A stretch of DNA of 64,000 nt, from contig CAXXVS010000003.1 of NCBI GenBank assembly GCA_963674755.2, forward strand, positions 1,152,001 to 1,216,000, written 5' to 3'. The stretch is from Desulfobacterales bacterium. GTDB lineage: Bacteria; Desulfobacterota; Desulfobacteria; Desulfobacterales; UBA5852. The translations under genes and the position numbers were made by a program. The notes under the pieces were generated by a model that was not told the DNA's origin, did no database searches, and was given only the letters and a program-made list of their open reading frames with translations. Positions 39,199 through 56,592 of the stretch are shown in pieces. Position 1 is the stretch's first letter; the number at the start of each line of letters is the position of its first letter.

Positions 39199-39646
39199 GG
39201 ATCGATCCTCCTCCGGTGTGGTTTTGGGACGTCAGGTGTCGCTCCGGCATTCCTGTCCTTCATCGTGTAGCAGGCGGGTTCCCCCACGGCTATGGGGTGT
39301 GATGCGTATCTCGTTCTTCTCGGCAGGGTATCCGGCACGATGCGTCCGAAAAATCATACGGTACACCAGTCCCGGGAAATCCGGTGAACGGACCGCCCCC
39401 GTCACCCTGCGCAAGAACTTCCCAGGGTCGATCAAATACCGTGCGCCGCTTCCTGGAATACATCCGATAGCCTATTGGGCTGCGACACGGGACCCTCGTA
39501 GAATAACAACTCATAAAGGAGCCTTGCGGATCCATGCGACCCTGTCACGGAAAGACATCGAAGATTCGCTGAAAGACGCCGGTCCGGCCAAATCGAAGCC
39601 GCCGGCAAAACCCTCATGCCCCAACAACGCTAAGAAGGAGGTTAGG

Positions 39647-40042
39647 ATGACAACCATTGGCGACATTTATCAAACCGCGGACTGGAAATCGGAGAAGCAT
39701 GTGCCCGTGATCGAATGCCCGGACCGTGTGAAAGCGGACGAGGTTTTCGACGTCAAGGTATCCCTCGGCAAGGAAGTGGCCCACCCCAATACCACCGAGC
39801 ATCACATCCGCTGGATTCAGCTCTACTTCAAACCCGAGGGGGGCAAATTCGCCTATCAGGTGGGCAATTTCGAGTTTACGGCCCACGGCGAATCCACCGA
39901 AGGGGCCAACCAGGGCCCGGTGTACACCAACCACACTGCCACGGCCAGCATGAAGATCAACAAGCCGGGGACCCTGCTGGCCACCGCGTTTTGCAACATT
40001 CACGGCCTGTGGGAAAACGCCAAGGCGGTTTCCATCGGGTAA
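39647..40042 (+). CDS. Class II superoxide reductase (neelaredoxin type, 1Fe-SOR)
   Basis: EKHVP, HPNTTEHHI, CNIHG; no N-terminal desulforedoxin domain; RBS aggagg. Confidence 0.93.
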   Translation: MTTIGDIYQTADWKSEKHVPVIECPDRVKADEVFDVKVSLGKEVAHPNTTEHHIRWIQLYFKPEGGKFAYQVGNFEFTAHGESTEGANQGPVYTNHTATASMKINKPGTLLATAFCNIHGLWENAKAVSIG

Positions 40043-41220: not shown

Positions 41221-41673
41221 ATGCTGCCTGTCCGAAAAATTCTGGTGTCCACCGATTTCAGTGAACCGGCCAAAGAAGGCTTCCGGAAAGCCTGCCAGAT
41301 CGCCGATCATTTCGGCGCGGAGCTGCTGGTGATCCATGTCAATTCCAACGTCCCCATCGTACCGGCCGGAAACGGTGCGATACCGTTCAATGTGGCGGGC
41401 TACCAGGAAGAGATCCGGCAAATCTCCAAGCGCAACCTGGAAACCTTTATCGTTGCGCAGCAGACCGCCCCAGTGCCCATTACGCCCCTTGTCCGGGAAG
41501 GGGAGATAGCCCACGAAATCGTCCGGGCGGCGGAAGAAAACCAGGCCGACCTCATCGTCATCGCCACCCACGGTTACTCCGGATGGAAGAAGTTCCTCCT
41601 GGGGTCGGTAACGGAAAGGGTGATCCGCATCGCCACGATGCCGGTGCTGACCATTTGCGCGCCGGAGGATTAG
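41221..41673 (+). CDS. Universal stress protein
   Basis: ILVSTDFS, DLIVIATHG, LLGSVTERVI. Confidence 0.93.
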   Translation: MLPVRKILVSTDFSEPAKEGFRKACQIADHFGAELLVIHVNSNVPIVPAGNGAIPFNVAGYQEEIRQISKRNLETFIVAQQTAPVPITPLVREGEIAHEIVRAAEENQADLIVIATHGYSGWKKFLLGSVTERVIRIATMPVLTICAPED

Positions 41674-41843: not shown

Positions 41844-42290
41844 TTAACCTTTCTGGATCAGGTAGAGGCTGACCAGCAACCCCGCACTCCCGAGCAATCG
41901 GGAAAGGCCTATGGGATGCCGGGCAAGGCCGAACAGGCCGAAGTGGTCCAGGATTACCGACAGGATGAGTTGACCCACGATCGTGGCGACCACCGTGCTG
42001 GCGATGCCGATATGGGGGGTCAGCACCAGCAGGGTGGTGACGAATATGACGCCGTAGATGCCGCCCGTATAGTAGATCGGCGGAATGGCTCTGAGTTGGG
42101 CCAAGGAGGGCAGGGCCGGGTGCAGCGCCAGCAGGACGACGATGAGCAGGAGCACCGCGCCGAAAAACGAGATGAAGGTGGCCTGCAGCGGATGGTTGAG
42201 GCCTTCGCTCAAGCGGGCATTGATTGATCCCTGGATCGGCACCAGCCCGCCGGCGCATAACGCCACCACAAGCAGCAGCAGATTTTTCAT
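41844..42290 (-). CDS. DMT-family transporter (YdcZ-like)
   Basis: PIQGSINARL, GGIYG, GQLILSVILDHFG. Confidence 0.88.
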   Translation of the reverse strand: MKNLLLLVVALCAGGLVPIQGSINARLSEGLNHPLQATFISFFGAVLLLIVVLLALHPALPSLAQLRAIPPIYYTGGIYGVIFVTTLLVLTPHIGIASTVVATIVGQLILSVILDHFGLFGLARHPIGLSRLLGSAGLLVSLYLIQKG

Positions 42291-42483
42291 ATTTCCCCTT
42301 TCGGATATTTATCCTATCAGCAATATCGAGATCTTCCTACTCTAGTCACTTTTCCTGATCAGGAAATGGCAACCTTTCGAAAAAATATGAATGAGCTGCA
42401 ATGGCGATTGCAAAAATAGATCTGGCGAGGCCGGATTCTCGACCGTTGTTTTATAGAAAGGAAACGAACAATTTTGCGTAAAT

Positions 42484-42511
42484 GTTTAATGCGTATCGAT
42501 ACGCATTAAAC
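42484..42511. other. Perfect 28-bp palindrome over the darB stop codon
   Basis: GTTTAATGCGTATCGATACGCATTAAAC is its own reverse complement. Confidence 0.8.
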
Positions 42512-43651
42512 CACCGTCAGATGCATGAAGCAGTGCGAAAACCGCCCGCTTTCCGGGATGAAGCACAGCAGGCGCTGGCCCGGTTCCAAGTCCCCGGATT
42601 TGAAAAGCGCCTCCATGATGAGGTAGATCGAGGCGGCGCCCACGTTGCCGGTGGTGTAGAGGTTGGTGAACCACTTCTCGTAGGGGATTTCGAAGCCGGC
42701 TTCCTGCATGCCGGCGTAGAACTTGTCCCGGAAGAAATGGGAGGAGTAGTGGGGCAGGTACCAGTCGATATCGGCGGGCTTGAGATTGTGTTTTGCGGCG
42801 GCCCGGCGCAGGGCGCGGGTCATGGTGGGGACGATCTCGCGGCCCAGCAGGCGCGCGTCCTGGCGCACGGCCAGAAAATTGCAGCAAGCCGCTTCCTTGG
42901 CCGAGGAGGCGGCCCGCCAACCGCTGACCGTGCGGTCTTCGTTCTTCCAGCCGCCGGCGTACATGCAGGTCTCCAGCTCGCCGGCAAAGCTGACATTCTC
43001 GATCCAGTCCACCCGCAGGGAAATACCCTCCGGATTTTTCTCCCCGGAGATAAAGGCCGCCCCGGCCCCGTCGGAAAGCATCCAGCGCAGGAAGTCGGCG
43101 TCGAAGGCCAGGATGGGTTTCTTGGCCAGATCCGCTTCGGGGTCGTCGGCAATCACCGAGAAGAAATCGGCCCGCAGATAGGATGAGGACAATTCCGATC
43201 CGGTGGCAACGGCGTTGGATGAGAAGCCCGCCGCCACGTTCATGCAGGCATGCTTCAAGGCCGTCATCCCGGCGATGCAGATGCCGGCCGTGGTCACGGC
43301 GTCGCAGGCCGGCAGGCAGAGCTCTCCCATAACCATCAGGGCGTGGCCGGGCAGGAGCACGTCCGGGCTGGTGGTGCCGCAGCACAGGCAGGCGATGTCT
43401 TCCAGGTTGAAATTCGCGTAGGGTTTGAGGCGCCGCACAGCCTCGGCCGTGAGCTGGGCGTTGCTGTGGGTGAATTCACCGGTTTCCGGATCCAGGGCGT
43501 AATAGCGCTGCTTGATCTTGTTGTTGCGCAGCATGATGGCCTTGGACCTGGACGGAATGGCCTTGATCCGGCCGAGCACGTCTTCGATGCGCTCGTTCGT
43601 GACCGGTTCGTTGGGCAGAAAGGAGGCGAGATCGGTAATATAGGCGTCCAT
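42506..43651 (-). CDS. darB: DarB/StlD-family beta-ketoacyl synthase III
   Basis: Cys (AGIC), His (LPHYSS), Asn (GNVGAAS) triad; DFLRWMLSDGAGA; PESGRFS. Confidence 0.85.
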   Translation of the reverse strand: MDAYITDLASFLPNEPVTNERIEDVLGRIKAIPSRSKAIMLRNNKIKQRYYALDPETGEFTHSNAQLTAEAVRRLKPYANFNLEDIACLCCGTTSPDVLLPGHALMVMGELCLPACDAVTTAGICIAGMTALKHACMNVAAGFSSNAVATGSELSSSYLRADFFSVIADDPEADLAKKPILAFDADFLRWMLSDGAGAAFISGEKNPEGISLRVDWIENVSFAGELETCMYAGGWKNEDRTVSGWRAASSAKEAACCNFLAVRQDARLLGREIVPTMTRALRRAAAKHNLKPADIDWYLPHYSSHFFRDKFYAGMQEAGFEIPYEKWFTNLYTTGNVGAASIYLIMEALFKSGDLEPGQRLLCFIPESGRFSHCFMHLTVV

Positions 43652-43663
43652 TGATACCTCAAA

Positions 43664-44593
43664 TCAGGATTCGTAGCGATTGCTGCGGTAATAGGCCACG
43701 GCCTTCTCGATAGAGGCCTTCCTGAGCCACAGGGTGACCTTGGCGGCCAGGGTGGCCAGCGGCGCCAGCACCACGATGGCCGCCAAAAGATAAAAGAAAA
43801 AGGCCAGCACCCGGCGCTGACGGGTCGGCGCTCCCGGGCCGCCCTTTTGGCGGATGAAGCGGGCCCAGATGCGAAAGACGCGCCGGATGCGGTGTTCGAA
43901 AATAATGTAGGCCGGCTCCACCGCCACCGCTCCCACGGCGTTCAGCACCTCTTGGTCAAGCCTGGTGATATCTTCCTGCAAAGCCTTGCGCAGGATGATG
44001 CCGAAGCGCGATGCCCGGCGGATGTCCTCCGCGTCCACCCCCGGTTTGGGGAGAAGCCCCAACAGACGGTCCTTGCGGCCGGTGAGCATCCAATAGGCAA
44101 TGGTGGCCACCCCGGTCAGGTTGCCGGCCCGGTCTCCCAGCACGATATTGCCCACCAGGCGCGCGTCCAGCTCCTGGAGACGCTGTTTGACCTGTTCCTG
44201 GGCCAGGAGCCACATATTGCGGCAGCCGATCACGGTTACCACCGGAGTGCCCGGAAAAAGCCGCGCCGCCGCGGGGGATCGCAGAAAGGCCTGCACCGGC
44301 AGGGAAGGCGACAGGTACCACACCGTGTAAGCCAGCACGATCAGGTCGAAGCGGGCTTCGGGATCGAGTTCGAGGGGCGCCAGTTCGCAGGGCACGCCTT
44401 CCACCGACTCCGGGAACACGTCGCAGAAACGCTGGGTCGTCCAGGGGAAAGGATAGGCCGGCTGGGGTTTGAGCGCCAGGGGGGTGATCGCGATCTTGGG
44501 AGCCTCGGCCAGGGGGCCCAGGAGGGAATCGACAATGTCCGTCAACTGGCCGGTCTGGGAATAGTGGACTACGAGAACCTTTGTCATCGTCAC
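43664..44593 (-). CDS. darA: Dialkylresorcinol condensing enzyme DarA
   Basis: YSQTGQL, YPFPW, VWYLSPSLP, VIGCRNMW; directly upstream of darB. Confidence 0.85.
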   Translation of the reverse strand: MTMTKVLVVHYSQTGQLTDIVDSLLGPLAEAPKIAITPLALKPQPAYPFPWTTQRFCDVFPESVEGVPCELAPLELDPEARFDLIVLAYTVWYLSPSLPVQAFLRSPAAARLFPGTPVVTVIGCRNMWLLAQEQVKQRLQELDARLVGNIVLGDRAGNLTGVATIAYWMLTGRKDRLLGLLPKPGVDAEDIRRASRFGIILRKALQEDITRLDQEVLNAVGAVAVEPAYIIFEHRIRRVFRIWARFIRQKGGPGAPTRQRRVLAFFFYLLAAIVVLAPLATLAAKVTLWLRKASIEKAVAYYRSNRYES

Positions 44594-44645
44594 TCAGCCA
44601 GGCGCTTTCCCGGCCCCGTAAAACGTCTATTGAACGAAACGCTTG

Positions 44646-44719
44646 GCGCCACGAAGATTACGAAGAAATGCCGGGAGGTTGACCCGCTATGCTCCGTTTT
44701 CTTCGTGCCCTCCATGGCG
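44646..44719. repeat. Imperfect inverted repeat (ccacgaaga...cttcgtg type)
   Basis: gccacgaagattacgaagaa ... ttcttcgtgccctccatggc. Confidence 0.5.
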
Positions 44720-44812
44720 AACGCTGGTGCTGGTGTTTCCAAGCAACTGAAGCGTTCACTTAAACAAAAAAGCAAGCTAATTTGACCATTTTCCGGCCAA
44801 AAGTCAACCGGG

Positions 44813-45862
44813 TCAATTGGCGGTATGGCTGTTCTTCCAGCACAGGGGATCCGATGCCAGATAATCACCGGTCATCTGGAAGGCCGCCCCCCGGCAGCCG
44901 TAACATTCCGCCGCCCGCTCGCACTCCCGGCAGGGTCCCTTGATGGTCTCGCGGTGGCGCTTCAGGTTCCGGATGACCTCGCTCGTGCGCAGGATGTCAG
45001 CCAGGGGCGTTTCGCGGATATTGCCCACGGCTAGGGTCACCCCCACGCAGGGCAGCACATCGCCCCGGGCCGTGACCAGACAGGAGAAGCGGTGGCGCAG
45101 GCATTTGTTGCCTACCAGGGGCGGCTGGGGCTCCCAGACAAGGCCGTAGCGTTCCCGGTCCAGTCGGGCAATTGCGTAGAAGAGCCGCTCCAGTTCCTCG
45201 GGAGGGACGTTAAGCTCGGGATGATTCGCGGCGTTGGCCTGGGGGGTGATGATTTCGAAATAGGGGGCGATGCCCCGGTCGCGCAACCACTGCCACATGG
45301 TGAGGATGTCGCCCCGATTTTCCCGGCAGATGACGGTGCTCACGGCCAGGAAGCGATCCTCGGACGGATAGCCGGCCTGCCGCAGACGGTTCAGGGATTC
45401 CCGAATCTGCCGATAGCTGCCCTTGACGCCGGTCAGCCGATCCTGGGTGGCTTCGTCGAAGGAGTTCATCTTCAGGACGACCCGCACCGATCGCCCGGCC
45501 AGGGCATCGGCCAGGGCCGGGGTGATCCCCGAGCCGTTGGTGAACATTTCCACGGCCATCCCCTGACCGCGGATAAAGTCGATCATCGCGATGAGATGGG
45601 GGTAGATGCTGGGCTCCCCGCCCAGGATGATGATCTTGCGGGCCCCCAGGGCGTGCGCCTGCCGGATCACGTCGTTTATCTCGCTGCGGCTGAGCTCCTG
45701 GGACACGTCCGGGTTCCGGGGCACGTAGCAGTATGGGCAGCGATAGTTGCAGCGCAGACTGAACTCGATCTCCATGGACAGCAGCCCGCCGCGTGCGGCC
45801 GTCTCCTCGATATCCGCTAGGGGAAACTCAAAATCCGAGGTTTGGATAAAACAGCTGGCCAT
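44813..45862 (-). CDS. Radical SAM protein with SPASM domain
   Basis: CNYRCPYC, GGEP, C...G.V.PC...CRECERAAECYGC...DPLC. Confidence 0.92.
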   Translation of the reverse strand: MASCFIQTSDFEFPLADIEETAARGGLLSMEIEFSLRCNYRCPYCYVPRNPDVSQELSRSEINDVIRQAHALGARKIIILGGEPSIYPHLIAMIDFIRGQGMAVEMFTNGSGITPALADALAGRSVRVVLKMNSFDEATQDRLTGVKGSYRQIRESLNRLRQAGYPSEDRFLAVSTVICRENRGDILTMWQWLRDRGIAPYFEIITPQANAANHPELNVPPEELERLFYAIARLDRERYGLVWEPQPPLVGNKCLRHRFSCLVTARGDVLPCVGVTLAVGNIRETPLADILRTSEVIRNLKRHRETIKGPCRECERAAECYGCRGAAFQMTGDYLASDPLCWKNSHTAN

Positions 45863-45995
45863 AAAGCAAGTCTTTCCATCCTATGAAAAAAGTCCCCACA
45901 GGGACCTCGATCCATCCGAGCCGGTATTTCGGCCCTGTGTCCATAACATGCCCGTCAACGTGTTGTCCATGGACCATTCCGGCACGGCAGTGCCG

Positions 45996-47012
45996 CTAAG
46001 GCGATTCAAACAATTGGGCCAGCTCGGCGGCCATCTCCGGATGGGTGCTTTTCAGCAAATCGTAATGCGCCCGGGCCTGATCGGGTCGCCCCAGGTGCTT
46101 CAAGAGCACCGCCAGGTTGAAGTGGGGGGCCGGCATGGTGGGATCGGCCTGCAGGGCCATTCCCCAGGCATCGAGGGCCAGGTCATATCGCTTGAGACGG
46201 TCATAGCAGTTGCCCAGGTTGTACCAGGCCTCCCCATCGTCGGCGTCGATGCGCACCGCGGCCTGAAACGCCAGCATGGCATCGTGATAGAGGGCCTGCT
46301 CCCCATAGATGACGCCCATATTGTAATAGGCCCGGCCGTAACCGGGATCGATCCGCAGGGCGGACTGGAAGGCCTGCAGGGCGTCATCCTTCTGTTCAAG
46401 GCGCCACAGGCACAGGCCAAGATTGTAGTAGACCTTCTCGTCTGCACCGTAGAGTTTCAGTCCCAGCCGATAGGCCCGGGCGGCTGCTTCATACTTCCCT
46501 TCCATGGCAAGCTGGTTGCCGAGCGCGATCCAGTCTTCTTCCTGGGCAACCGCCTCGGGGTCGGCCGTTTCCGTCTCCGGTGCCATCAGACGGACCAGCT
46601 CCGGATAGCCCCCGACGCGTGCCAGGTGGAGGGGGGTGCGCCCCAAATTGTCCGCCAGGGTGGCATCGGCGCCGTTTTCCACCAGCAGGGCCGTCATCTC
46701 CGCATAGCCCTTGAAGGCCGCCAGGTGCAGGGGCGTACGCCCGTCCCGGTCCCGGGCGTTTGCGTCCAGCCCGGCGGCGATCAGCAGACGGCCCGCCGCC
46801 ACGGCGTTGCTGTTGGCGGCCACATGCAGCAGGGTTTCACCCTTGAAGCCTTTCTTATGGGGATCGGCCCCGCGGTCCATCATCTGCTGCAGCTGGGCCG
46901 CATCATCGGTCCGCACCGCATCCTGGATGTAAGGCCCGCAGGCGTTTAGAAGAAGGAGCAACCAGAGAAAGGTCCCCCCAATAGCCAGACGCAAACGAAT
47001 TTCTTGTTGCAT
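45996..47012 (-). CDS. Ankyrin-repeat/TPR protein, probable lipoprotein
   Basis: LNAC lipobox-like, GRTPLHLA repeats, YYNLG/YNMG TPR repeats. Confidence 0.85.
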   Translation of the reverse strand: MQQEIRLRLAIGGTFLWLLLLLNACGPYIQDAVRTDDAAQLQQMMDRGADPHKKGFKGETLLHVAANSNAVAAGRLLIAAGLDANARDRDGRTPLHLAAFKGYAEMTALLVENGADATLADNLGRTPLHLARVGGYPELVRLMAPETETADPEAVAQEEDWIALGNQLAMEGKYEAAARAYRLGLKLYGADEKVYYNLGLCLWRLEQKDDALQAFQSALRIDPGYGRAYYNMGVIYGEQALYHDAMLAFQAAVRIDADDGEAWYNLGNCYDRLKRYDLALDAWGMALQADPTMPAPHFNLAVLLKHLGRPDQARAHYDLLKSTHPEMAAELAQLFESP

Positions 47013-47126
47013 CACTTTACAAGCATTAGCGCATAATCGTACAAAAGTAAGCCGCAACCCCATGACCCTTCAGATAAGCTCATTACGCCCATCCTCTCTT
47101 CTGGTAGCGTACAAGTTTGTTTCCAG

Positions 47127-47246
47127 AAAAGAGGCGTTTTTGCTCTGACCAAGGCCGCACAAGGGTTTTGCGGTGAGGCGTACGCCGGTACGCCGCAGCC
47201 GAAAAACCCGCTGCGACCGGCCGGTCAGGGGAAAAAAGACCATTTT
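47127..47246. repeat. ERIC-like palindromic intergenic element
   Basis: caagg...gaggcgtac-gccg-gtacgccgca core with imperfect terminal inverted repeats. Confidence 0.55.
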
Positions 47247-47256
47247 GGTTCGGGTA

Positions 47257-48912
47257 CTAGCGGCAGGCAACGCTGTCCTTGATCCGCTTCACATGCCCCC
47301 TGCCCAACCCTTTGACCTCGCAGCCCAGCTCGAAATAGCACCGGATCTTGGCATCGTCCAGCAGATTGAAGCAGTCGATGACCGCCACCGGCCGCCCTGT
47401 CATTTCCACCACAGCCTCGGGTGCCAGGTCGCGATAAGCTTGGTGGCCCACCGCCAGCACGAAGGCGTCGACGCCCGCCAGGGCCGTTTCCAGCCGGTCG
47501 CAGACCACCAGATCTTTCAGCCCCTCCTGGTTGCGGAAAAAGCGACCCATGGAATGCCCGGGGGCCGGGTAGCTCTCCTGCTTTTCCAGCTCCCACCAGC
47601 GCTTCACATAGGGATCGTGGACCACCACGTCGGCCCCCATTTCCGCCAGTTTGCGCACGATCAATTCGGAGCCGCTGTAGCGTGTGTCGCCCACGTCCTG
47701 GCGGTAGGACGCCCCCAGAAGCGCAATCCGCGAGGCCGCCACGATTTTGCCCATGTTGCGCAGGGCGTCGCGTACCAGCTGCACGGCATGCAGGGCCCGG
47801 GTATCGTTGATGTCGATGGCCAGGGGGGTGATTTTGAAAATGTCGTCCTCGAAGCCCATCAGGGTGTTGTAGGCCCAGACGCCCAGGCCGCCGTCCTTGG
47901 GCAGGCAATAGCCGCCGATGCCGGGTCCCGGAAAAATGATGTTGGAGTGGGTGGGACGCACCTTGATGGCGTCCACCACCTTGGTCAAATCCACGCCGTT
48001 GCGCTCGGAGAAAAGGCTCCACTCGTCCAGAAAGGCCAGCAGGGTGGCCCGGTAGGCGTTTTCCACGATCTTGCAGGTTTCGCTTTCGATGGGACGGTCC
48101 AGCACGGTCAGGGGAAATTTCTCAACGTTGAGCACCCGGGAGAGAAAGCGGACGACCTTTTCCCGGGCCGTGGCATCGATGCCGCTGCAGACCCGCCAGA
48201 ACTCCTTGATGGAGGCCACATAGTCCCGCCCGGGCATGACCCGCTCGAAGCTGTGGGCCAGGCAGGGTTCGGCTGTTTGCATCCCCCGGGCTTCAAAGGC
48301 CTTTTTCATGATGGGATAGGCCACGTACTCGGTGGTCCCCGGGGGCACCGTAGTCTCGATCAGGACCAGGCATTCCGGGGTGATCTTGTCGCCGATGACC
48401 TTCAGGCTCTCCTCCAGGGCCTTGATATCGGCATGCCCCTGGCGCACATTGCCTAGCGTCTCCTTGAAATAATCGCACTGCACGTCCACCACCACCACGT
48501 CCGCCAGGCGGAGGGCGTCGTAGGTATAGGTGGCCACAAGGGTCTTCTTGGTCTTGACGCAGCGTGCGATCAGGGGGGCCACTTCAGGGTCTTCGGCTTC
48601 CACCGGTGCCTTTCCCTGGTTGAGACAGGGGATCTTCCAGAAAGAGCGCACCGAAGGCCGCTGCATCCCGATGACGAAGTAGGGCGAATCGCCCGTGGCC
48701 TTATCCTCGGCATCGGCCACCACGCCGGCCATGACAGCCCCCACGAAACCCACCCCCATGACCACCACGATCTGCCGGCCGGCGGCCCGCTGTTTGTCGA
48801 CGAGGGTTTGCAGTCGTTCGAATTCCCGGTCATAATCTTCCTCTGCCGGGAGGGGGAAGGTTTCGCCGCTGGGGGACATGGACGTCAATTGATCCGGTGT
48901 GTTCACTGTCAT
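47257..48912 (-). CDS. UDP-glucose/GDP-mannose dehydrogenase family protein
   Basis: GVGFVG, ETTVPPGTT, KIVENAYR, GPGIGGYCLPKD. Confidence 0.9.
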   Translation of the reverse strand: MTVNTPDQLTSMSPSGETFPLPAEEDYDREFERLQTLVDKQRAAGRQIVVVMGVGFVGAVMAGVVADAEDKATGDSPYFVIGMQRPSVRSFWKIPCLNQGKAPVEAEDPEVAPLIARCVKTKKTLVATYTYDALRLADVVVVDVQCDYFKETLGNVRQGHADIKALEESLKVIGDKITPECLVLIETTVPPGTTEYVAYPIMKKAFEARGMQTAEPCLAHSFERVMPGRDYVASIKEFWRVCSGIDATAREKVVRFLSRVLNVEKFPLTVLDRPIESETCKIVENAYRATLLAFLDEWSLFSERNGVDLTKVVDAIKVRPTHSNIIFPGPGIGGYCLPKDGGLGVWAYNTLMGFEDDIFKITPLAIDINDTRALHAVQLVRDALRNMGKIVAASRIALLGASYRQDVGDTRYSGSELIVRKLAEMGADVVVHDPYVKRWWELEKQESYPAPGHSMGRFFRNQEGLKDLVVCDRLETALAGVDAFVLAVGHQAYRDLAPEAVVEMTGRPVAVIDCFNLLDDAKIRCYFELGCEVKGLGRGHVKRIKDSVACR

Positions 48913-48954
48913 GGTGGCGGTCCTCTTTCGGTAAGGGGTAGTCGTTGGGCGTGT

Positions 48955-48987
48955 GTCGTCATTCTCCGGCTTGACCGGAGAATCCAG
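48955..48987. repeat. CGTC-type REP palindrome
   Basis: cgtc-attctccgg-cttga-ccggagaat-ccag. Confidence 0.7.
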
Positions 48988-49051
48988 TATCGAGAATCCC
49001 ATATCCGGTCATGCCAATGGGCGTTAACCGGGCTCCACCTCGACAACTCCA

Positions 49052-50176
49052 CTACCTTAAAGTTTCGAGGTAGTCTCGATAGGTAGCCTCGATGCCTGCC
49101 CGTAAGGATATGGCCGGACGCCAGCCGAGCCGCTTGAGGCGCGAGACGTCGAGCCGTTTCCGGGGGGTGCCGTCGGGCCGGGATGCATCCCAGGCGATAT
49201 CGCCGCCATAACCCACCACTTGGCGCACCAGGTCGGCCAGTTCCCGGATGGTCTGGTCCTCACCTGTGCCCACATTGAGCAGATAGGTTTCCGGCCGCAG
49301 ATTTGGCGTCTCCTCCTCCGATCCTCCGGACGAGGGCGCGCAGACCCGAGCCAGGGCCTGTTCCGGCCGGGCCATGATAAAAAGGCAGGCCGCCGCCAGG
49401 TCGTCCACATGCAGGAATTCGCGGTAGGGCGTTCCGGTGCCCCACAGCACCAGTTGCGGTTTAGGCCCTTCCCGGGCTGCAGCTACGCCGTCGGCCACCG
49501 CCGAAGGAATTCCCAGGTGTGCCCGCAGATCATCGGGCAGGGGGCCGTGACAGTGTTCGTCCCGGGCAATGGCCGCCCAGTCTTGCTGCACCGCCAGTTT
49601 GGCCAGGTGGCACTTGCGGATGAGGGCCGGCAGGACGTGGGAGGTTTCCAGATCATAGTTGTCGTTGGGACCGTATAGATTGGTGGGCATCACGGCCCGG
49701 AAGTGGGTCCCGTACTGGCGGTTGTAGGATTCACACAGCTTGATACCGGCGATCTTGGCAATGGCGTAGGGTTCGTTGGTGGGCTCCAGCCAGCCTCCCA
49801 GGAGAGCCTCCTCCCGCATGGGCTGGGACGCCATTTTGGGATAGATGCAGGAACTCCCCAGAAAAAGAAGTTCCCTTACGCCGGACTGGTGGGCGGCGTG
49901 GATCACATTGGTTTGGATCATCAGGTTCTGGTAGATGAATTCCGCGGGGAAGGCGTTGTTGGCCTGGATGCCGCCCACCCGGGCGGCGGCCAGAAAAACG
50001 CAATCCACAGGAGTTTCCGCGAAAAATTGGCCCACGGCCTGCTGGTCGGTCAGATCCAGGGCGGCATGGGAACGGGTAATGACGTTGTGAAACCCTTCCC
50101 GCGCCAGGCCGCGCTGCAGGGCGGCCCCCACCATGCCGCCGTGCCCCGCCAGAAAAATGCGCGTATCAGTGTTCAT
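49052..50176 (-). CDS. fcl: GDP-L-fucose synthase
   Basis: AGHGGMVG, GSSCIYP, YAIAK, MPTNLYGP, SHVLPAL. Confidence 0.93.
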   Translation of the reverse strand: MNTDTRIFLAGHGGMVGAALQRGLAREGFHNVITRSHAALDLTDQQAVGQFFAETPVDCVFLAAARVGGIQANNAFPAEFIYQNLMIQTNVIHAAHQSGVRELLFLGSSCIYPKMASQPMREEALLGGWLEPTNEPYAIAKIAGIKLCESYNRQYGTHFRAVMPTNLYGPNDNYDLETSHVLPALIRKCHLAKLAVQQDWAAIARDEHCHGPLPDDLRAHLGIPSAVADGVAAAREGPKPQLVLWGTGTPYREFLHVDDLAAACLFIMARPEQALARVCAPSSGGSEEETPNLRPETYLLNVGTGEDQTIRELADLVRQVVGYGGDIAWDASRPDGTPRKRLDVSRLKRLGWRPAISLRAGIEATYRDYLETLR

Positions 50177-50200
50177 ACTAGATTGCCTTCTTACAATTTC

Positions 50201-50343
50201 GAATTGGTTTCAAAGCGTCAGATCACGTTCGAGGGCAAGGCGCAGCCTGATGAAAAAGCGCAGCATATATAGCATATGTGAGCATTTTGAAGAAGGCGGC
50301 AACGCCGCCATTCGGACGTTAGATGATGCTTTGAGACCAATTC
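50201..50343. repeat. ERIC-like element with 20-bp terminal inverted repeats
   Basis: gaattggtttcaaagcgtca...gcaaggcg...gcagcatat-atagc-atatgtgagc...caacgccgc...tgatgctttgagaccaattc. Confidence 0.75.
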
Positions 50344-50346
50344 TGG

Positions 50347-51462
50347 TTATTCGGTGTGCCGGGCCACCGGAAACCCGGCAATGTCACACAACCGGTCCCG
50401 ATCGGCGCCCTTCAGGTCTTCCTGCACCATGGCGCCCACCAACGCCTCAAAAGAGACCCGAGGCGCCCAGCCCAACACCTCCCGCGCTTTGCTGGCATCC
50501 CCCTGGAGATATTCCACTTCGGTGGGCCGGAAATAGGTGGGGTCGATGCGCACCACCGTATCACCCGGACGCAAGGCGCTGCCCTTGCCGCCGTCGACGG
50601 CGTCCACGATACCCATTTCCTCGATGCCCTCACCTTCCCAGCGCAGACCGACGCCCACCTCGGCAAAGGCCGCGGCCACGAGTTCCCGCACCGAATGGAC
50701 CTGCCCGGTGGCGATCACAAAATCATCGGGCTGGTCCTGCTGCAGGATGCGCCACATGGCATCGACATAGTCCCGGGCATGTCCCCAGTCCCGGTGGGCT
50801 TCCAGGTTGCCGAGGTAGACGCAGCGCTGGAGCCCCATATGCATGCGTGCCACGGCCCGGGTCACCTTGCGGGTAACAAAGGTTTCGCCCCGGATGGGGG
50901 ATTCGTGGTTGAAGAGGATGCCGTTGCAGGCATACATCCCGTAGGCTTCCCGGTAGTTGACGGTGATCCAGTAGGCATACACCTTGGCGGCCCCGTAAGG
51001 GCTGCGGGGATAAAAGGGCGTCGCCTCGGTCTGGGGGGTCTCCCGCACCTTGCCGTACATCTCGCTGGTGGAGGCCTGGTAGAAGCGTACGGTCTGCTCC
51101 AGACCCAGGATGCGGATCGCTTCCAGAATGCGCAAGGTTCCCAGGGCATCGGAATTAGCCGTATACTCAGGGGTTTCAAAGGAGACTTTGACGTGGCTCT
51201 GGGCCGCCAGATTGTAAATTTCGTCCGGTCGGGTCTCCTGGATGATGCGAATCAGGTTGGTGGCGTCCGTGAGATCCCCGTAATGCATGAAAAACCGGAC
51301 GTCCTGATCGTGGGGGTCCTTGTAGAGATGATCCACGCGCCCGGTATTGAAACTGGAGGAACGCCGTTTGATGCCGTGCACTTCGTAACCCTTGGTCAAC
51401 AGCAATTCCGCCAGATAGGCCCCGTCCTGGCCGGTAATGCCGGTAATCAACGCTTTTTTCAT
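50347..51462 (-). CDS. gmd: GDP-mannose 4,6-dehydratase
   Basis: [31 protein letters not shown]. Confidence 0.96.
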
Positions 51463-51553
51463 TGGTTTGTCCAACCTTTTCAAAAGATTTAAGTGGCTTA
51501 TGGGAAGAAGATTTTCCGGAAACCGCCGAGACCCCTCGCTATCGGAGAAAATG

Positions 51554-52975
51554 TCAGCGGCCGTAGTCGTCTTCGAAGCGGGTAATGTCGTCCTCCCCCA
51601 GATAGCTGCCGGTGCGGACCTCGATAATCTCCAGGGGAATTTTCCCCGGATTGGAGAGGCGGTGCGGCATGCCGGTGGGGATGTAGGTGGATGAATCCTC
51701 CCGCAGGAGAAATTCCTCCTCGCCTCGCTCCACCAAGGCGGTTCCCTTGGCTACGATCCAGTGTTCGGCCCGGTGGTGATGCTGCTGCCGGCTGATGCGG
51801 GCCTTGGGCTTTACAACCAGGCGTTTCACCTGAAACCGCTCGGAGGCGATAATACTGTCCACCGTGCCCCAGGGGCGGTAGACCTTGCGATGGCGCTCGA
51901 CTTCCCCGCGTTTCTGTTCCGTCAAGCGGGTCACCAGATGCTTCACGTCCTGGGCCCGCTCGCGGGGGCACACAAAAACGGCATCCGCCGTTTCGACGAT
52001 GATATGGCGGTCCACCCCGACGGCCGCCACCAGACGGTGGCCGGCGTGGATGACCGATTCGGTCACATCATGGAGCAGGGTGTCGCCCCGGGCGACATTG
52101 CCGTCCCCGTCCTTGCGGCCGGCTTCCCACAAGGCCTCCCAGGATCCCAGATCGCTCCATCCGGCATCCAGGGGCAGCATGGCCCCCAGGGTGGTCTTTT
52201 CCATCACCGCATAGTCGATGGAATTGGCCGGGCAGTTCCGGAAGGCTGCCTCATCCAGACGGAAAAAATCCAGATCATCGCGGCCGGCCGCCAGGGCCGC
52301 TTCACAGGCGGCCACCATTTCCGGCACCAGGCGCTTCATTTCCGCCAGCAGGGTGGATGCGCGGAATAGGAACATGCCGCTGTTCCAAAAATAGGTACCG
52401 GAGGCCAGATAGCCTTTCGCCGTGTCCCGATCCGGCTTTTCCACAAAGCGCTCGATGGCATAGGCCGGCGCTTCGGCGAAGGAGGATGGCAGAACGGCCC
52501 CGCGCTTGATGTAGCCGTACCCTGTTTCCGGCCGCGTGGGCAGGATGCCGAAAGTGACCAGACGTCCCTCTTCTGCCAGGGCCTGTCCCGCCGCCACCAT
52601 GCGGCGAAAGCGCTCCGGGCGTCCGATATAGTGGTCGGCCGGCAGGATCAAGAGGGCGGGATCGTCCCCCCCGCAGGAGGCCCTCAGGGCGGCCACGGCC
52701 ACGGCCGGAGCGGTGTTCCGTCCTACCGGTTCCAGGATGATGGCCGCCGGCGGCACGTCGATTTCGCGCAGCTGTTCGGCAATCATAAAGCGATGGTGCT
52801 CGTTGCAGATGACCACGGGCCGGGCCAGATCGTCCAATCCGTCCAGACGGCTGAGGGTCTCCTGGATCATGGATTGCGTTCCGACAAAAGGGAGCACCTG
52901 CTTGGGATGAAGCTGCCGCGAGAGCGGCCACAAGCGGGTTCCGGCGCCCCCCGCCAGGATAACCGGTACGATCAT
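51554..52975 (-). CDS. manC: Mannose-1-phosphate guanylyltransferase / mannose-6-phosphate isomerase
   Basis: [40 protein letters not shown] cupin. Confidence 0.95.
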
Positions 52976-53447: not shown

Positions 53448-54788
53448 TCAGGAGAAAAAGATCGACGGCAGCCAGGTCACCAGCCCCGGGAAGATCGCAA
53501 TAACCAACAACCCGATCAATTGCAGGAGCACGAACGGCAGGATACCCCGGTAAATGTGCATCATGGTGTAGTCCTCGGGCGCCACCCCTTTGAAGTAGAA
53601 CAGGGCATAACCAAAGGGCGGCGTCAGGAACGAGGTCTGCAAGTTGACGCACATCAGCAGGGAAAACCACAACGGGTTGAAATCCAGCTCCATGGCAATG
53701 GGCATGAATATGGGCACCGTCACCAGGAGGATGGCCGCCCAATCGATGAACATCCCCATCAGAAAAACGATCAGCATCATGATGAGCAGGGCCACCCAGC
53801 GGTTCAACCCGCTGCCCACCAGCACGTCGGCCACCACGTCGCCGCCCCCCATGCTCAGGAAGACCGTGCTGAAAAACTTGCCCCCGATAAACAGCATCAT
53901 GACCATGGCGGTGGTCTTGAGGGTCGCAAAACAGGAGGATTTGATAACCTCCCAGGTGAATTTGCGGTTGAAAACCGCCAGGATGGCCGCCCCGGCCGCT
54001 CCCATGCCGGCCGCTTCGGTGGGGGTGGCCACGCCCGCCAGAATGGTCCCCATGACGGCCAGGATCAATGCCAGGGGGGGAATCAGGGACTTGAGCGTCA
54101 TGATCCATTTCTGGGCAGCGCTCCAGCGGGCCGCTTCCTCCCGCGAAATGGGGGGGCCGATTTCCGGCCGGAGCTGGCAGCGGACCAGGATATAGAAGAA
54201 ATAGAGTCCCGCCAGCAGCAGGCCCGGGAAGATGGCCCCGGCAAAGAGGTTGCCCACCGAGGTCTCCTTCATGCCCGTCAGGCCACCGTAGACCACCATC
54301 ATGATGCTGGGGGGGATCAGGATGCCCAGGGTACCGGCCGCGCAGATGATCCCGCTGGTGATCTCCTTCTGGTAGCCCTTCTTGAGGAGGGCCGGCGTGG
54401 CCAGCAGACCCATGGCCACCACTGAGGCGCCGATGATGCCGGTGGTGGCCGCAAAAACGGTGCACACCACCACCACGGCCAGTCCCAGCCCGCCTTTCAA
54501 ACTACCCAACACCACATAGAGGGCCTCGAAAAGCTGATCCGCCACCTTGGAGCGATCCAGCAACTGGGCCATGAGGATAAACAAAGGGATCGCCACCAGG
54601 ACGTAATTGTTCATCAGGCCCCAGGTGTTGTTGGCAAACATGTCGAACAGGGCCTGCACATTGAAGCCGTTGTCGATCAGCCCGAAAAGGGCAGCCACGG
54701 CCGCCAGGGTATAGGCGAGCGGGTGGCCGAGGCAGATGGCGAAGATCAGTGTGGCGAACATGGCCACAGTCAGGAATTCTGGACTCAT
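53448..54788 (-). CDS. dctM: TRAP transporter large permease
   Basis: GTLGILIPPS, ATPTEAA, FLTPPFG. Confidence 0.93.
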   Translation of the reverse strand: MSPEFLTVAMFATLIFAICLGHPLAYTLAAVAALFGLIDNGFNVQALFDMFANNTWGLMNNYVLVAIPLFILMAQLLDRSKVADQLFEALYVVLGSLKGGLGLAVVVVCTVFAATTGIIGASVVAMGLLATPALLKKGYQKEITSGIICAAGTLGILIPPSIMMVVYGGLTGMKETSVGNLFAGAIFPGLLLAGLYFFYILVRCQLRPEIGPPISREEAARWSAAQKWIMTLKSLIPPLALILAVMGTILAGVATPTEAAGMGAAGAAILAVFNRKFTWEVIKSSCFATLKTTAMVMMLFIGGKFFSTVFLSMGGGDVVADVLVGSGLNRWVALLIMMLIVFLMGMFIDWAAILLVTVPIFMPIAMELDFNPLWFSLLMCVNLQTSFLTPPFGYALFYFKGVAPEDYTMMHIYRGILPFVLLQLIGLLVIAIFPGLVTWLPSIFFS

Positions 54789-54817
54789 TGTCGGTTACCT
54801 CTTGATTTCCCGCTCGG

Positions 54818-55318
54818 TCAGCGCGCGCTGCGCAGCGTCTGAAAGTCGTGGATCAGGTTGGCGATACCCTGCATCAGCAGGAAGAACAGCGTCAGGGCCA
54901 TGATGAACTTGAAGGGATAGATGGGCGGCGCCCAGCTGGTGGGATTCAGCTCCCGGCCGATAATCGACAAGTAGGCGAATTTGAAAGACCAGATGGTCAG
55001 GCAGGTCATCACCGGCAGAAACAGCACCAGAGTGCAAAAAATTCCCAGGATGGCCTGGGTGCGCGTCGAAGCCCGGGCGGTGAAGATGTCGACCTTCACA
55101 TGGCCGCCGGTGACATCGCAATAGGCCAGCCCGAACATGTAGTGTATTCCGTAAAGAAAGGTCGTGGCCTCGAAGCCCCAGGTGGTGGGGGCGTTGAACA
55201 CGTAGCGCATGACCACTTCATAGACCACCACCAGCAGCAGGGGCAGCACCAGAAGGGAGCTGACCTCCCCCTGCTTGATGTTGAACGTATCGATTGCGTT
55301 GGCAATTTTTTCCAGCAT
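54818..55318 (-). CDS. dctQ: TRAP transporter small permease
   Basis: YEVVMRYVFNAPT.W, HVKVD; 4 TM. Confidence 0.9.
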   Translation of the reverse strand: MLEKIANAIDTFNIKQGEVSSLLVLPLLLVVVYEVVMRYVFNAPTTWGFEATTFLYGIHYMFGLAYCDVTGGHVKVDIFTARASTRTQAILGIFCTLVLFLPVMTCLTIWSFKFAYLSIIGRELNPTSWAPPIYPFKFIMALTLFFLLMQGIANLIHDFQTLRSAR

Positions 55319-55367
55319 GCCTTGGTTCCTTTCAAACGGCATCTTATTCGGGCCCCGGCCAATGGAC

Positions 55368-55402
55368 CGGCGGTCCGCCTCCATCGGAGGCGCGGACCGC
55401 CG
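55368..55402. terminator. GC-rich stem-loop between dctP and dctQ
   Basis: cggcggtccgc...gcggaccgccg. Confidence 0.55.
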
Positions 55403-55437
55403 ATCCGCTGCTGCAAGGCGTCAGACCGCCACCGGCC

Positions 55438-56592
55438 TTATTCGGTGGTCCGGCCGCCGATGTAGGTTTCATAGGGCCAGGGGGTAACGCCGGAACGGGC
55501 ATCGCGCCAGTCGGCGAATTCCTCGACGAAGGCTTCCTGGGAATCGAGCACTTTTTTGACATCGGGGAACTTCGCTTTGAGCCCGTCCAGGTAGGCTTTG
55601 GTGGTCTTGCGGAAACTGATCCGGGTCTCCGGATCCATGGTCACGAATTCGATCTTCTCCTTGAACTTCTTGATGGCCTTGGCATTCAGGCCGTTGATCC
55701 AGTTATAGGACCACAACTGGGTTTCCTTGGCGCAGATCTTGACGATCCATTTGAGATCCTCGGGCAGTTTGTCCCAGGCTTCCTGGTTCATGATGATATC
55801 GCATTGGAAGGCCGGCTGGTGGACGCCCGGCTCAATCGCGTATTTGGTGATTTCATCGAACCCCATCGGATAGTTGATGGCCGGGGTCGAATATTCCGCG
55901 GCATCGATGACACCGCGCTCCAGGGCCAGATAGACCTCGCCGCCGGGCAGCGGGCTGACCGAAGCGCCCAGATTGTTCATGATGTCCATGTACCAACCCG
56001 GCGTACGGATCCGCATGCCTTTGAAATCGCCCATCTTGGTGGCCCGTTTGTTCGAAAACAGGCCCATTTCCTGACCGGTCTGGCCCGCCGGCAAGGCATA
56101 CAGGTTAAAGGGCTTGTAGAGTTCCTGAAGCAGTTCGAGCCCTCCCTTTTCATAGAGCCAGATGTTGTAGCCTTCGGCATCCAATCCGAAAGGCACCGAG
56201 GCAAAGGCTACGAAGGCTTCATTTTTCCCTTTCCAGTAGAGGGGCGAGGAGTGGGCGATCTGAGCCGATCCCTGGGAGACCGCGTCAAAGGTTTGATTGG
56301 CCGGAACGAGCTCGCCAGCGGAAAAGGGTTTGATGTCCAGCCGGCCGGCGGAGGCCAGACGCACGCTGTCCGCGAAATGCACGGCGATATCGTAAAACAG
56401 CAACCCCTTGGACCAGGGCATGACCATTTTCCAGCGGATGTTCTCATCCGAGGTCTTGAACTTCACGCGTTTGGCAACGTCGTGGCGTTCGTCGGTGCCG
56501 AACTTGCCACGTTTTTCAGCGGCATTGGCCAATGTCGCGATAAACGTCAAAACGAGCAATGAAGCGATGACAAGGCAAAACGTTCGTTTCAT
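55438..56592 (-). CDS. dctP: TRAP substrate-binding protein (TakP/FcbT1-like)
   Basis: Signal peptide; FKGMRIR, GGEVYLALERGVIDAAE. Confidence 0.92.
   Translation of the reverse strand: MKRTFCLVIASLLVLTFIATLANAAEKRGKFGTDERHDVAKRVKFKTSDENIRWKMVMPWSKGLLFYDIAVHFADSVRLASAGRLDIKPFSAGELVPANQTFDAVSQGSAQIAHSSPLYWKGKNEAFVAFASVPFGLDAEGYNIWLYEKGGLELLQELYKPFNLYALPAGQTGQEMGLFSNKRATKMGDFKGMRIRTPGWYMDIMNNLGASVSPLPGGEVYLALERGVIDAAEYSTPAINYPMGFDEITKYAIEPGVHQPAFQCDIIMNQEAWDKLPEDLKWIVKICAKETQLWSYNWINGLNAKAIKKFKEKIEFVTMDPETRISFRKTTKAYLDGLKAKFPDVKKVLDSQEAFVEEFADWRDARSGVTPWPYETYIGGRTTE

Follow-up and report, generated by a model that had tools for sequence, protein, structure and literature searches.

The window analysed here, a 64,000-nt stretch of a Desulfobacterales genome, carries between positions 41844 and 52975 a block of nine intact ORFs, all on the minus strand, with 12-219 bp between the longest ORFs. 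ORF and Pfam/NCBIfam checks bear out the gene set, coordinates, order and strand given in an earlier note made from the DNA letters, and all nine ORFs have congener counterparts at 60-97% identity. Read on the minus strand, the block starts with manC, encoding a mannose-1-P guanylyltransferase/PMI (51554..52975; TIGR01479, 671 bits against a cut-off of 373), followed by the GDP-mannose 4,6-dehydratase gene gmd (50347..51483, likely ATG start 51462; TIGR01472, 601 against 415), the GDP-L-fucose synthase gene fcl (49052..50176; NF047922, 463 bits, just below the cut-off of 500) and ugd, for a UDP-glucose/GDP-mannose-family dehydrogenase (47257..49002, likely start 48879; TIGR03026, 193 against 190). 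Next come an intergenic repeat (47124..47245), with 14 further copies in the genome by blastn, and a gene for a protein with Pfam ankyrin and TPR domains (45996..47063, ATG start 47012). The remaining genes encode a Kuste3343-type radical SAM/SPASM enzyme (44813..45862), DarA (43664..44593), DarB (42506..43651) and a YdcZ-type DMT transporter (41844..42290; PF04657). The 3' end of darB (42508..42662) is duplicated on contig C1 (719,916-720,070) at 90% nucleotide identity. A sigma-70-like site precedes darA (44788..44816, minus strand), but the five such sites in the region are not above chance (3.1 ± 1.8 in shuffles); terminator predictions (18, against 10.6 ± 3.8 expected) were excluded from the evidence.

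DarB falls in the StlD/DarB ketosynthase clade (PRK06816, 530 bits, cut-off 450), scoring 447 against the narrower profile NF053539, below its cut-off of 550. It aligns end to end with the StlD structure 5gk0 (E = 3e-120), and its catalytic residues C125, H301 and N336, aligned with those of StlD, are intact. DarB enzymes join a beta-ketoacyl and an alpha,beta-unsaturated acyl thioester to a carboxy-cyclohexanedione, which DarA then aromatises. The darA gene lies 12 bp upstream of darB, and its product had no match in Pfam, NCBIfam or PDB sequence searches. Its full-length homologues (42-57% identity) sit directly upstream of darB, and of the nine homologue clusters looked up, three are labelled 'hypothetical' and six bear the name 'dialkylresorcinol condensing enzyme' or DarA. 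The AlphaFold model (pLDDT 90.5) structurally matches WrbA and flavodoxin; from homologue names, position and this predicted fold, DarA is predicted to be a flavodoxin-fold aromatase. The PRK06816 score, the catalytic residues and the DarA homologue names agree with the darAB identity proposed earlier.

The radical SAM/SPASM enzyme, recognised by its Radical_SAM and SPASM domains, is kin to Kuste3343 of Kuenenia. It is 43% identical over 343 aa, at full length, to the Kuenenia-cluster protein P0375, which matches kuste3343 (E = 9e-112), and it is the best match in this genome for Kuenenia P0455 (42% against 25%). The radical motif CxxxCxxC lies at C38/42/45 and eight SPASM cysteines at 254, 261, 272, 311, 314, 320, 323 and 341, each cysteine being kept in 34-36 of the 36 core alignment rows; eight SPASM cysteines could fully ligate two auxiliary clusters. 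In a FastTree phylogeny the window type and the Kuste3343 type form sister clades (support 92, unstarred), which, given the method and the long outgroup branches, we read as support for kinship only. Relatives often have the enzyme as a fusion with a hotdog dehydratase: among the best 120 homologues, 18 are at least 480 aa long, and all 18 have a precomputed ApeP-like dehydratase assignment (PF22817). The nearest solved structure is PqqE (E = 3e-16). A role as a RiPP or cofactor SPASM maturase (PqqE, AhbD, NirJ, MftC), and with it a haem or PQQ role, was rejected on the best equivalog score of 123 bits against a cut-off of 500 and on the lipid-gene neighbours. The substrate is likely an acyl-ACP rather than the resorcinol, and the type of reaction discussed below is suggested by motifs and context. 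No paper assigning Kuste3343 a function was found in the freely readable literature.

In two congeners the block is the left arm (W) of one 63-68 kb cluster, with arms W, B and C in collinear order (G005, C3:237,267-300,537; G011, C8:188,358-256,095). In the present genome the cluster is split into three pieces, with arms B and C away from the window and their gene order kept. The congener arms match these pieces mostly at 60-92% amino acid identity, the lowest core pair being at 49%. Misassembly was rejected as an explanation for the split, because contigs span the Usp-DMT junction in all four runs, which come from four studies; one of the runs may be the source sample. A search for a repeat common to both breakpoints found none. 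An insertion of about 22 kb, which encodes a reverse transcriptase, precedes arm B; the darB 3' duplicate stands about 22 kb before that arm, and a HipA pair lies inside arm C.

Arm B encodes DarG (NF053536, 130 bits, cut-off 70), DarH/BtrH (NF053550, 472, cut-off 300), an ACP and an ABC pair (C1:742,464-749,065), which are contiguous with darB in G005, G010 and G011. The earlier note had listed no ACP and no glycosyltransferase; this is correct within the window but not genome-wide, as both lie on contig C1 (742,464-756,534) and are contiguous with the block in congeners. In this genus the DarJ/DarK-type ketosynthase pair, present in most other dar loci of the order, is absent between ACP and ABC genes. 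Arm C encodes a 'lipid biosynthesis B12/rSAM' protein (TIGR04072, 416 bits, cut-off 360), the profile exceeding its cut-off in four of five congeners. By Pfam, arms B and C hold KS/CLF, KR, DH, AMP ligase, glycosyltransferase, acyltransferase, LolA and exporter genes, and the best ketosynthase profiles, PRK09116 and PRK09185, both stay under cut-off. Their anchor and export set consists of GT2, a lipid-A-type acyltransferase, PlsC, MMPL and LolA, and these outlying arms also contain B12 radical SAM genes. In total the supercluster has six radical SAM genes, three of them B12-type, together with a fatty-acid-kinase (Dak2/DegV) fusion and a phytoene-desaturase-like enzyme. Since no ammonia-lyase was found among the scanned genes of the three arms, an aryl-polyene head is unsupported; of the two ammonia-lyases in the genome, one is HutH and the other belongs to a separate KS/ligase locus.

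Four congeners have the same gene order, manC-gmd-fcl-(ugd)-Ank-rSAM-darA-darB, and a fifth agrees across a contig break; ugd is missing between fcl and the ankyrin gene in one congener (G004, locus L002). Outside the genus, sugar, Ank-TPR and DMT genes occur near darB in none of 38 loci and sugar genes near the radical SAM gene in none of 22, which, beyond the genus, is the outcome that the earlier note had named as counting against the sugar genes. In three sister-genus genomes (G001, G003 and G016) manC-gmd-fcl-ugd forms a separate block. The gmd gene is present in 34 of 38 genomes tested and, outside the genus, lies far from darB. GT2 adjoins dar genes in G149, G085 and G283, in stretches that contain no sugar genes. 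In the present genome manC is the only copy (a single tblastn match) and is likely a housekeeping neighbour, gmd is the only close copy (paralogues at most 27%), and manC-gmd-fcl are the only GDP-fucose genes. The Ank-TPR gene is restricted to the genus (4 of 301 genomes of the order, all of the same genus, with 7 candidates scored per genome); its product is likely a lipoprotein, as indicated by a lipobox-like motif ending at Cys24 that is similar in two congeners. The DMT gene, listed earlier as part of the locus, is confined to this genome and its closest relative: among the four closest loci only that of G012 (L001) has it, between darB and the 3' duplicate. It is a passenger of an insertion after darB, outside the cluster. 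The GDP-fucose operon and the transporter are probably mere neighbours of the lipid genes.

The radical SAM gene is not a specific partner of darAB: 17 of the 24 genomes that carry it have no darB, and 41 of the 50 with darB do not have it. Among the 294 genomes sampled outside the genus, 44 carry darB and 20 the radical SAM gene; both are present in 3, and chance predicts 3.0, so neither gene needs the other. Of 22 radical SAM loci outside the genus, 21 have acyl-lipid genes as neighbours, 18 with homologues of this genome's lipid genes and 3 further ones with a PaaK-like ligase plus an acyltransferase or LolA. For darB, 12 of 38 loci outside the genus contain non-dar lipid-cluster genes, against none of 8 control loci; the other 26, many on short contigs, have none nearby. 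The radical SAM gene adjoins darB in four more lineages (G296, G674 and the metagenome loci L224 and L242).

We favour, at roughly even chances, the reading that the block in the window is the left arm of a split Desulfobacterales cluster that makes a flexirubin/arcuflavin-like resorcinol ester envelope lipid, anaerobically and with a radical-modified chain. The arm-C ketosynthases/CLF, FabG, dehydratases and AMP ligase would build an ACP-bound chain, which the window radical SAM/SPASM enzyme would most likely oxidise without oxygen, by hydrogen abstraction and electron transfer in the manner of a desaturase. The B12 radical SAM enzymes may methylate or cyclise the chain, DarH and DarG would attach it to the resorcinol, and export of the lipid would fall to ABC, MMPL and LolA, with the GDP-fucose operon and the DMT gene taking no part. 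A bolder version, in which anammox-type orphan radical SAM enzymes (Kuste3342/3343) desaturate, methylate or ring-close the chain of a resorcinol lipid that is possibly fucose-capped, seems unlikely to us. The anaerobic host of the earlier note agrees with the Desulfobacterales kin, and its view of the product as uncharacterised holds: no paper on a DAR product in Desulfobacterota was found in the freely readable literature. The radical enzyme does belong to the same larger cluster as darAB, but the locus is not self-contained, being one third of that cluster.

A possible but less probable explanation is that two independent lipid pathways are neighbours, with darAB, DarG/H, ACP and ABC yielding a DAR or a plain fatty-acyl ester, and the radical SAM enzyme serving only a Kuste3335-52-type pathway with a separate product, an unsaturated or methylated glycolipid carried by an APE-type anchor. 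The chance-level co-occurrence, the anammox bacteria and many Desulfobacterales that carry the radical SAM gene without darB, and an anchor/export set in arms B/C resembling E. coli ApeD/J/L/M as described in PMC8253772 all fit this explanation. It accords less well with the adjacency of dar and lipid genes in those 12 loci, which span many families, or with a radical SAM gene that abuts darB in several lineages. Moreover, DarH is of the acyltransferase type and requires a donor chain, and known dar modules of the same architecture feed hybrids, according to the sections of PMC3949708 concerned.

The compact pathway of the earlier note, in which the radical SAM enzyme tailors a DAR/CHD and GDP-fucose is attached by the arm-B GT2 to give a bartoloside-like glycoside, appears improbable. 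The gene order conserved among congeners, co-orientation with gaps under 250 bp, the GT2 of arm B and the glycosylated DARs known from cyanobacteria (PMC6836626, in part) speak for it. Against it stand the sugar genes' absence from darB and radical SAM loci beyond the genus, their separate block in the sister genus and sole-copy status here, the distant gmd, the GT2-dar stretches free of sugar genes, the loss of ugd in G004 and the usual occurrence of the radical SAM gene without darB. Even more doubtful is decay of the cluster in this strain, whereby split and insertions would have uncoupled the arms and left remnants or genes for a free DAR only. The three-way split, the duplicated darB end, the reverse-transcriptase insertion and the HipA pair would suit such decay, yet the nine ORFs are intact and close to their congener counterparts, arms B and C retain gene order, and split dar/polyene loci are functional in Azoarcus and Chitinophaga.

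The dar module was known already; what is of use is its partner, a radical-SAM-rich lipid cluster that anammox bacteria also have. Should the chain end up on a resorcinol, the product ought to be readily detected by mass spectrometry. If the bolder version is true, the resorcinol ester would be the first isolable product reporting anammox-type radical SAM activity, in a cultivable sulfate reducer. The cultured Desulfatitalea alkaliphila carries both darAB and a radical SAM homologue at 63%, which offers a way into an enzymology question of long standing that is inaccessible by genetics in anammox bacteria.

Stand-alone darABC systems (Pseudomonas HPR, Photorhabdus StlCD, Eikenella EcDarAB, cyanobacterial brt) share the DarA-DarB pair and the conserved DarB catalytic residues. 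With two to three core genes they make DARs that are free or glycosylated, whereas darAB here goes together with an acyltransferase/export module and a large lipid cluster. With regard to a bartoloside-type cluster, arm B has a GT2, but the sugar genes are linked to darAB within the genus only. The dar module of Azoarcus sp. BH72 (azo0283-0293, arcuflavin) shares darA, darB, DarG, a BtrH-like DarH, the ABC pair and the ACP, as its description in PMC3949708 indicates, and the flexirubin clusters of Chitinophaga pinensis and Flavobacterium johnsoniae have the same set in the corresponding accounts (PMC3949708, PMC3992019). Their partner loci, like those here, supply KS/CLF, dehydratases, AMP ligase, glycosyltransferase, acyltransferase, LolA and exporter, and may be split: the Azoarcus polyene loci are physically unlinked and still feed arcuflavin (PMC3949708, in part). 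Unlike these systems, the host here is an anaerobe-type Desulfobacterales, and the cluster has no ammonia-lyase among its genes and no DarJ/K in arm B; it does have six radical SAM genes, the Dak2/DegV fusion and the phytoene-desaturase-like enzyme. In the E. coli APE system, PMC8253772 describes 4-HBA as drawn from primary metabolism.

The other likeness is to Kuenenia kuste3335-3352 and to DP1836-1860 of Desulfotalea psychrophila, clusters that were at one time suggested to make polyunsaturated/ladderane lipids in the relevant parts of PMC2649909 and PMC4790861. Shared are the Kuste3343-type radical SAM/SPASM enzyme (43%), a TIGR04072 B12 radical SAM protein above cut-off, a phytoene-desaturase-like gene, several FabF paralogues and ACPs, FabG, dehydratases, glycosyltransferase, an MMPL-type membrane protein and an acyl ligase. 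In contrast to those clusters, the lipid genes here are joined to darAB, and the queries used for a polysaccharide deacetylase had no match in this genome. Expression of kuste operons in E. coli gave no new lipids, with the Kuste3342/3343 proteins undetected, in the available portion of PMC4790861. Ladderane production is not claimed for the supercluster, as the current consensus ties ladderanes to kuste3603-3608 (bioRxiv 10.64898/2026.05.19.726425, in part). DP1855 of D. psychrophila is the Kuste3343 homologue (PMC2649909), and the range DP1836-1860, which includes it, is tabulated as polyene-associated in Table S7 of PMC3949708. For Desulfurivibrio alkaliphilus AHT2, of whose clusters no product or enzyme study was found in the freely readable literature, the same table lists a polyene cluster (DaAHT2_1113-1137) and a DAR cluster (DaAHT2_1139-1144) with consecutive locus tags; likened by that table row only, this deltaproteobacterial polyene cluster beside a dar cluster is a direct precedent, in print since 2014.

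The nine minus-strand reading frames reported in the earlier note were all found, intact and in the order given there. Family scans confirmed ManC, Gmd, the NDP-sugar dehydrogenase (Ugd), the ankyrin+TPR protein (Ank-TPR), the radical SAM/SPASM protein (rSAM), the StlD/DarB ketosynthase and the YdcZ-type DMT transporter, with Fcl scoring slightly below its cut-off. DarB aligns end to end with the solved StlD (E = 3e-120) and retains C125, H301 and N336. DarA has no model in the family libraries scanned; its homologues bear the source name DarA, darB is present in 79 of the 80 genome loci fetched with DarA, and its AlphaFold model (pLDDT 90.5) matches WrbA and flavodoxins. The GC content of the locus is unremarkable against the window, and the nearest named relatives are Desulfobacteraceae/Desulfobacterales MAGs. 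The genes are real, and their earlier interpretation is right in part.

The window locus is one arm (W) of a larger cluster. By querying this genome (contigs C1 to C3) with the neighbours of darB and rSAM from other genomes, we detected two additional blocks. Arm B (C1:742,464-756,534) encodes an ACP, Dak2/DegV, a thioesterase, DarG, DarH, an ABC pair, GT2, MMPL, a lipid-A-type acyltransferase, a second ACP, a ketosynthase (KS) and PlsC. Arm C (C3:1,446,100-1,475,886) carries three B12 radical SAM genes, two other radical SAM genes, LolA, FabG, two ACPs, a KS-CLF fusion, two KS, three dehydratases, an AMP ligase and a phytoene-desaturase-like gene. DarG, DarH and TIGR04072 passed their NCBIfam cut-offs. 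In the congeners G005 and G011, arms W, B and C form a single collinear cluster of 63-68 kb with spacers of 0.15-9 kb, and in the congener G010 arm W is joined to arm B. A tandem radical SAM pair in arm C (C3:1,454,777-1,456,955; L172:9778-11956) adjoins an ACP gene, gave no NCBIfam match at E ≤ 1e-10, is 69-91% conserved in congeners and also occurs in G241, G245 and G276. Arm C is interrupted by a HipA kinase and HTH partner (C3:1,462,965-1,464,541; L173:3966-5542), a pair not seen at the corresponding place in G005.

The split is genuine in this genome, because contigs from four of four runs span the Usp-DMT junction. The 3' end of darB (window 42508-42662) has a 155-bp copy at C1:719,916-720,070, about 22 kb ahead of arm B. 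In the congener G012 that copy follows darB at a distance of 6 kb, the DMT gene and unrelated genes lying in between, from which we infer that DMT was brought in by an insertion; in this G012 locus, darB-end sequence lies at L001:18251-18405 and 20681-20743, a third fragment among them. Displaced copies match the darB end of the congener G004 at 94-95% versus 88-90% for their own genes, which suggests a hotspot of integration or recombination. Some 16 kb of mainly unannotated ORFs (C1:720,300-736,200; L161), with a reverse transcriptase at C1:732,798, lie between the duplicated darB end and arm B; pieces of this stretch reappear after darB in G005 and G012. Intergenic multi-copy repeats occur inside the sugar block (window 47124-47245, 14 other copies; 50202-50342, two other copies), and similar repeats come after darB in congeners. 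The TRAP transporter adjoining manC (window 53448-56592) has a 59-85% paralogue directly ahead of arm C (C3:1,439,817-1,443,030), which may be left over from the rearrangement by which the arms were parted. Just past the break, two genes (window 39614-40042 and 41221-41673), one for a superoxide reductase-like protein with a desulfoferrodoxin domain and one for a universal stress protein, are unrelated to the cluster.

The proposed conservation of the sugar genes beside darAB fails beyond the genus. The order manC-gmd-fcl-(ugd)-Ank-rSAM-darA-darB is conserved in G004, G005, G011 and G012, and G010 agrees with the sugar-to-darB order across a contig break; outside the genus, sugar and Ank-TPR genes were found at 0/38 darB loci and 0/22 rSAM loci. 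The manC-gmd-fcl-ugd genes form a separate block in G001, G003 and G016. The GDP-fucose genes of the window are the sole such set in this genome, and a part for them as sugar donors through the GT2 of arm B, though possible, lacks support. Ank-TPR, which bears a lipobox-like motif, was found in 4/301 genomes, all of this genus.

Nor is rSAM specific to darAB. Among 301 order-level genomes, with six rSAM candidates scored per genome, darB occurs in 48, rSAM in 24 and both in 7; when 50 darB genomes, these 48 together with G010 and G012, were rescored in full, rSAM was present in nine, six of them in this genus. Outside the genus the overlap is 3/294, against 3.0 expected. Acyl-lipid genes were recognized at 18 of 22 rSAM loci by homology to the arms of this genome and at three more by Pfam neighbours, the remaining locus being at a contig end, adjoining nuo genes. 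Long forms with an ApeP-like dehydratase domain make up 18 of the best 120 rSAM homologues, and 30 long distant representatives contained ApeP in seven, FabA in one and LolA in one.

Over 343 residues the window rSAM shares 43% identity with P0375, a protein whose 90% cluster contains K. stuttgartiensis proteins and whose N-terminus agrees, compared by eye, with the Kuenenia radical SAM kuste3343 (PMC4790861 Table S2). When the Kuenenia protein was searched against this genome, the window rSAM came top at 42%, the next at 25%. In a FastTree tree the window and Kuenenia groups come out as sister clades (support 92, unstarred); they share 11/11 cluster-type cysteines. The family reaches Lentisphaeria, with dehydratase-fused lengths, and Nitrospirota (P0299, P0329, P0357, P0397). 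Eight SPASM cysteines would be enough to fully bind two auxiliary clusters. As in anaerobic sulfatase maturase, this pattern suits the transfer of electrons during a two-electron oxidation, and so points to a probable role in O2-independent oxidation of an ACP-bound chain.

The window belongs to the darA type. In the set of 50 darB genomes, darA occurs in 25 and a 431-aa B12 radical SAM gene in 24 (L150:7452-8747 in G188, and 23 others); one genome, whose darB is truncated by the end of a contig, has neither, and the two genes are mutually exclusive in all 50. The B12 gene is also noted for loci L212-L277 and L278-L299. In 22/24 it stands immediately upstream of darB; in one genome it is divided between contigs, and in one it is broken and sits elsewhere. 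Among 28 other darB genomes sampled from the phylum, a full darA is adjacent in 14 and the B12 gene in 13, the last being cut by a contig end; partial DarA-like matches occur elsewhere in 4/13 of the B12-type genomes (E 1e-16 to 1e-20). Of 67 metagenome loci fetched, 25 were set aside as too short or partial; in 42/42 informative loci the B12 gene lies beside darB, and darA in none. On a quick darB tree the darA/B12 label requires five changes, at least two of them imposed by starred branches. The B12 protein, whose best match is HpnR (165 against a cut-off of 650), is a candidate oxygen-independent aromatase or ring methylase. A separate small cluster (C2:1,713,078-1,719,709; L204:9079-15710) holds an aromatic amino-acid ammonia-lyase, under all cut-offs, an acyl-CoA ligase, two FabF-like genes and a TRAP transporter, and is a possible aryl starter source. 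PAL-like ammonia-lyase genes beside an ABC pair in several darA-less darB loci (L181:13192-14919, L184, L151) hint at aryl-polyene partners there.

We put at roughly even chances a product in which arm C would assemble and then radically modify a chain, DarH/DarG would esterify it to the dialkylresorcinol (DAR), and ABC/MMPL/LolA would carry it out. The analogy is with Azoarcus and Chitinophaga, which esterify DAR to a polyene from separate loci (PMC3949708, PMC3992019). The main rival, two independent pathways in a shared neighbourhood, draws on the chance-level co-occurrence of darB and rSAM and seems to us possible though somewhat unlikely. A compact, fucosylated, rSAM-tailored DAR, along the lines of the earlier note, is improbable, its sugar genes keeping company with darAB in this genus only among the loci compared, and decay of the cluster in this strain, where the window frames are intact and the arms split, is more improbable still.

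The proposed resorcinol ester lipid with a radical-modified chain can be set beside published systems. Neighbouring polyene and DAR clusters in Desulfurivibrio alkaliphilus are already known, and D. psychrophila DP1836-1860 are polyene-associated (PMC3949708 Table S7). Rattray et al. tied DP1853/DP1855 to kuste3342/3343, and D. psychrophila yielded polyunsaturated hydrocarbons, not ladderanes (PMC2649909). Heterologous tests gave no product (PMC4790861), and ladderanes are now assigned by consensus to another cluster (bioRxiv 10.64898/2026.05.19.726425; PMC13459092). Desulfobacterota 'ladderane-like' clusters of unknown function are noted in PMC9902471, and PMC8253772 describes the genes for anchoring and exporting aryl polyenes. 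Our literature search, covering few subscription papers, found no DAR product in this phylum and no Kuste3343 function. At L155:1917-8399 (G056), a 2,160-aa ORF that includes a ketosynthase, and whose size is that of a type I PKS/Pfa-like protein, directly precedes darA-darB, so that the dar pair has another partner there. The cluster studied here joins an extended dar module to a radical lipid cluster of the Kuste3335-52 type and is split in this genome.
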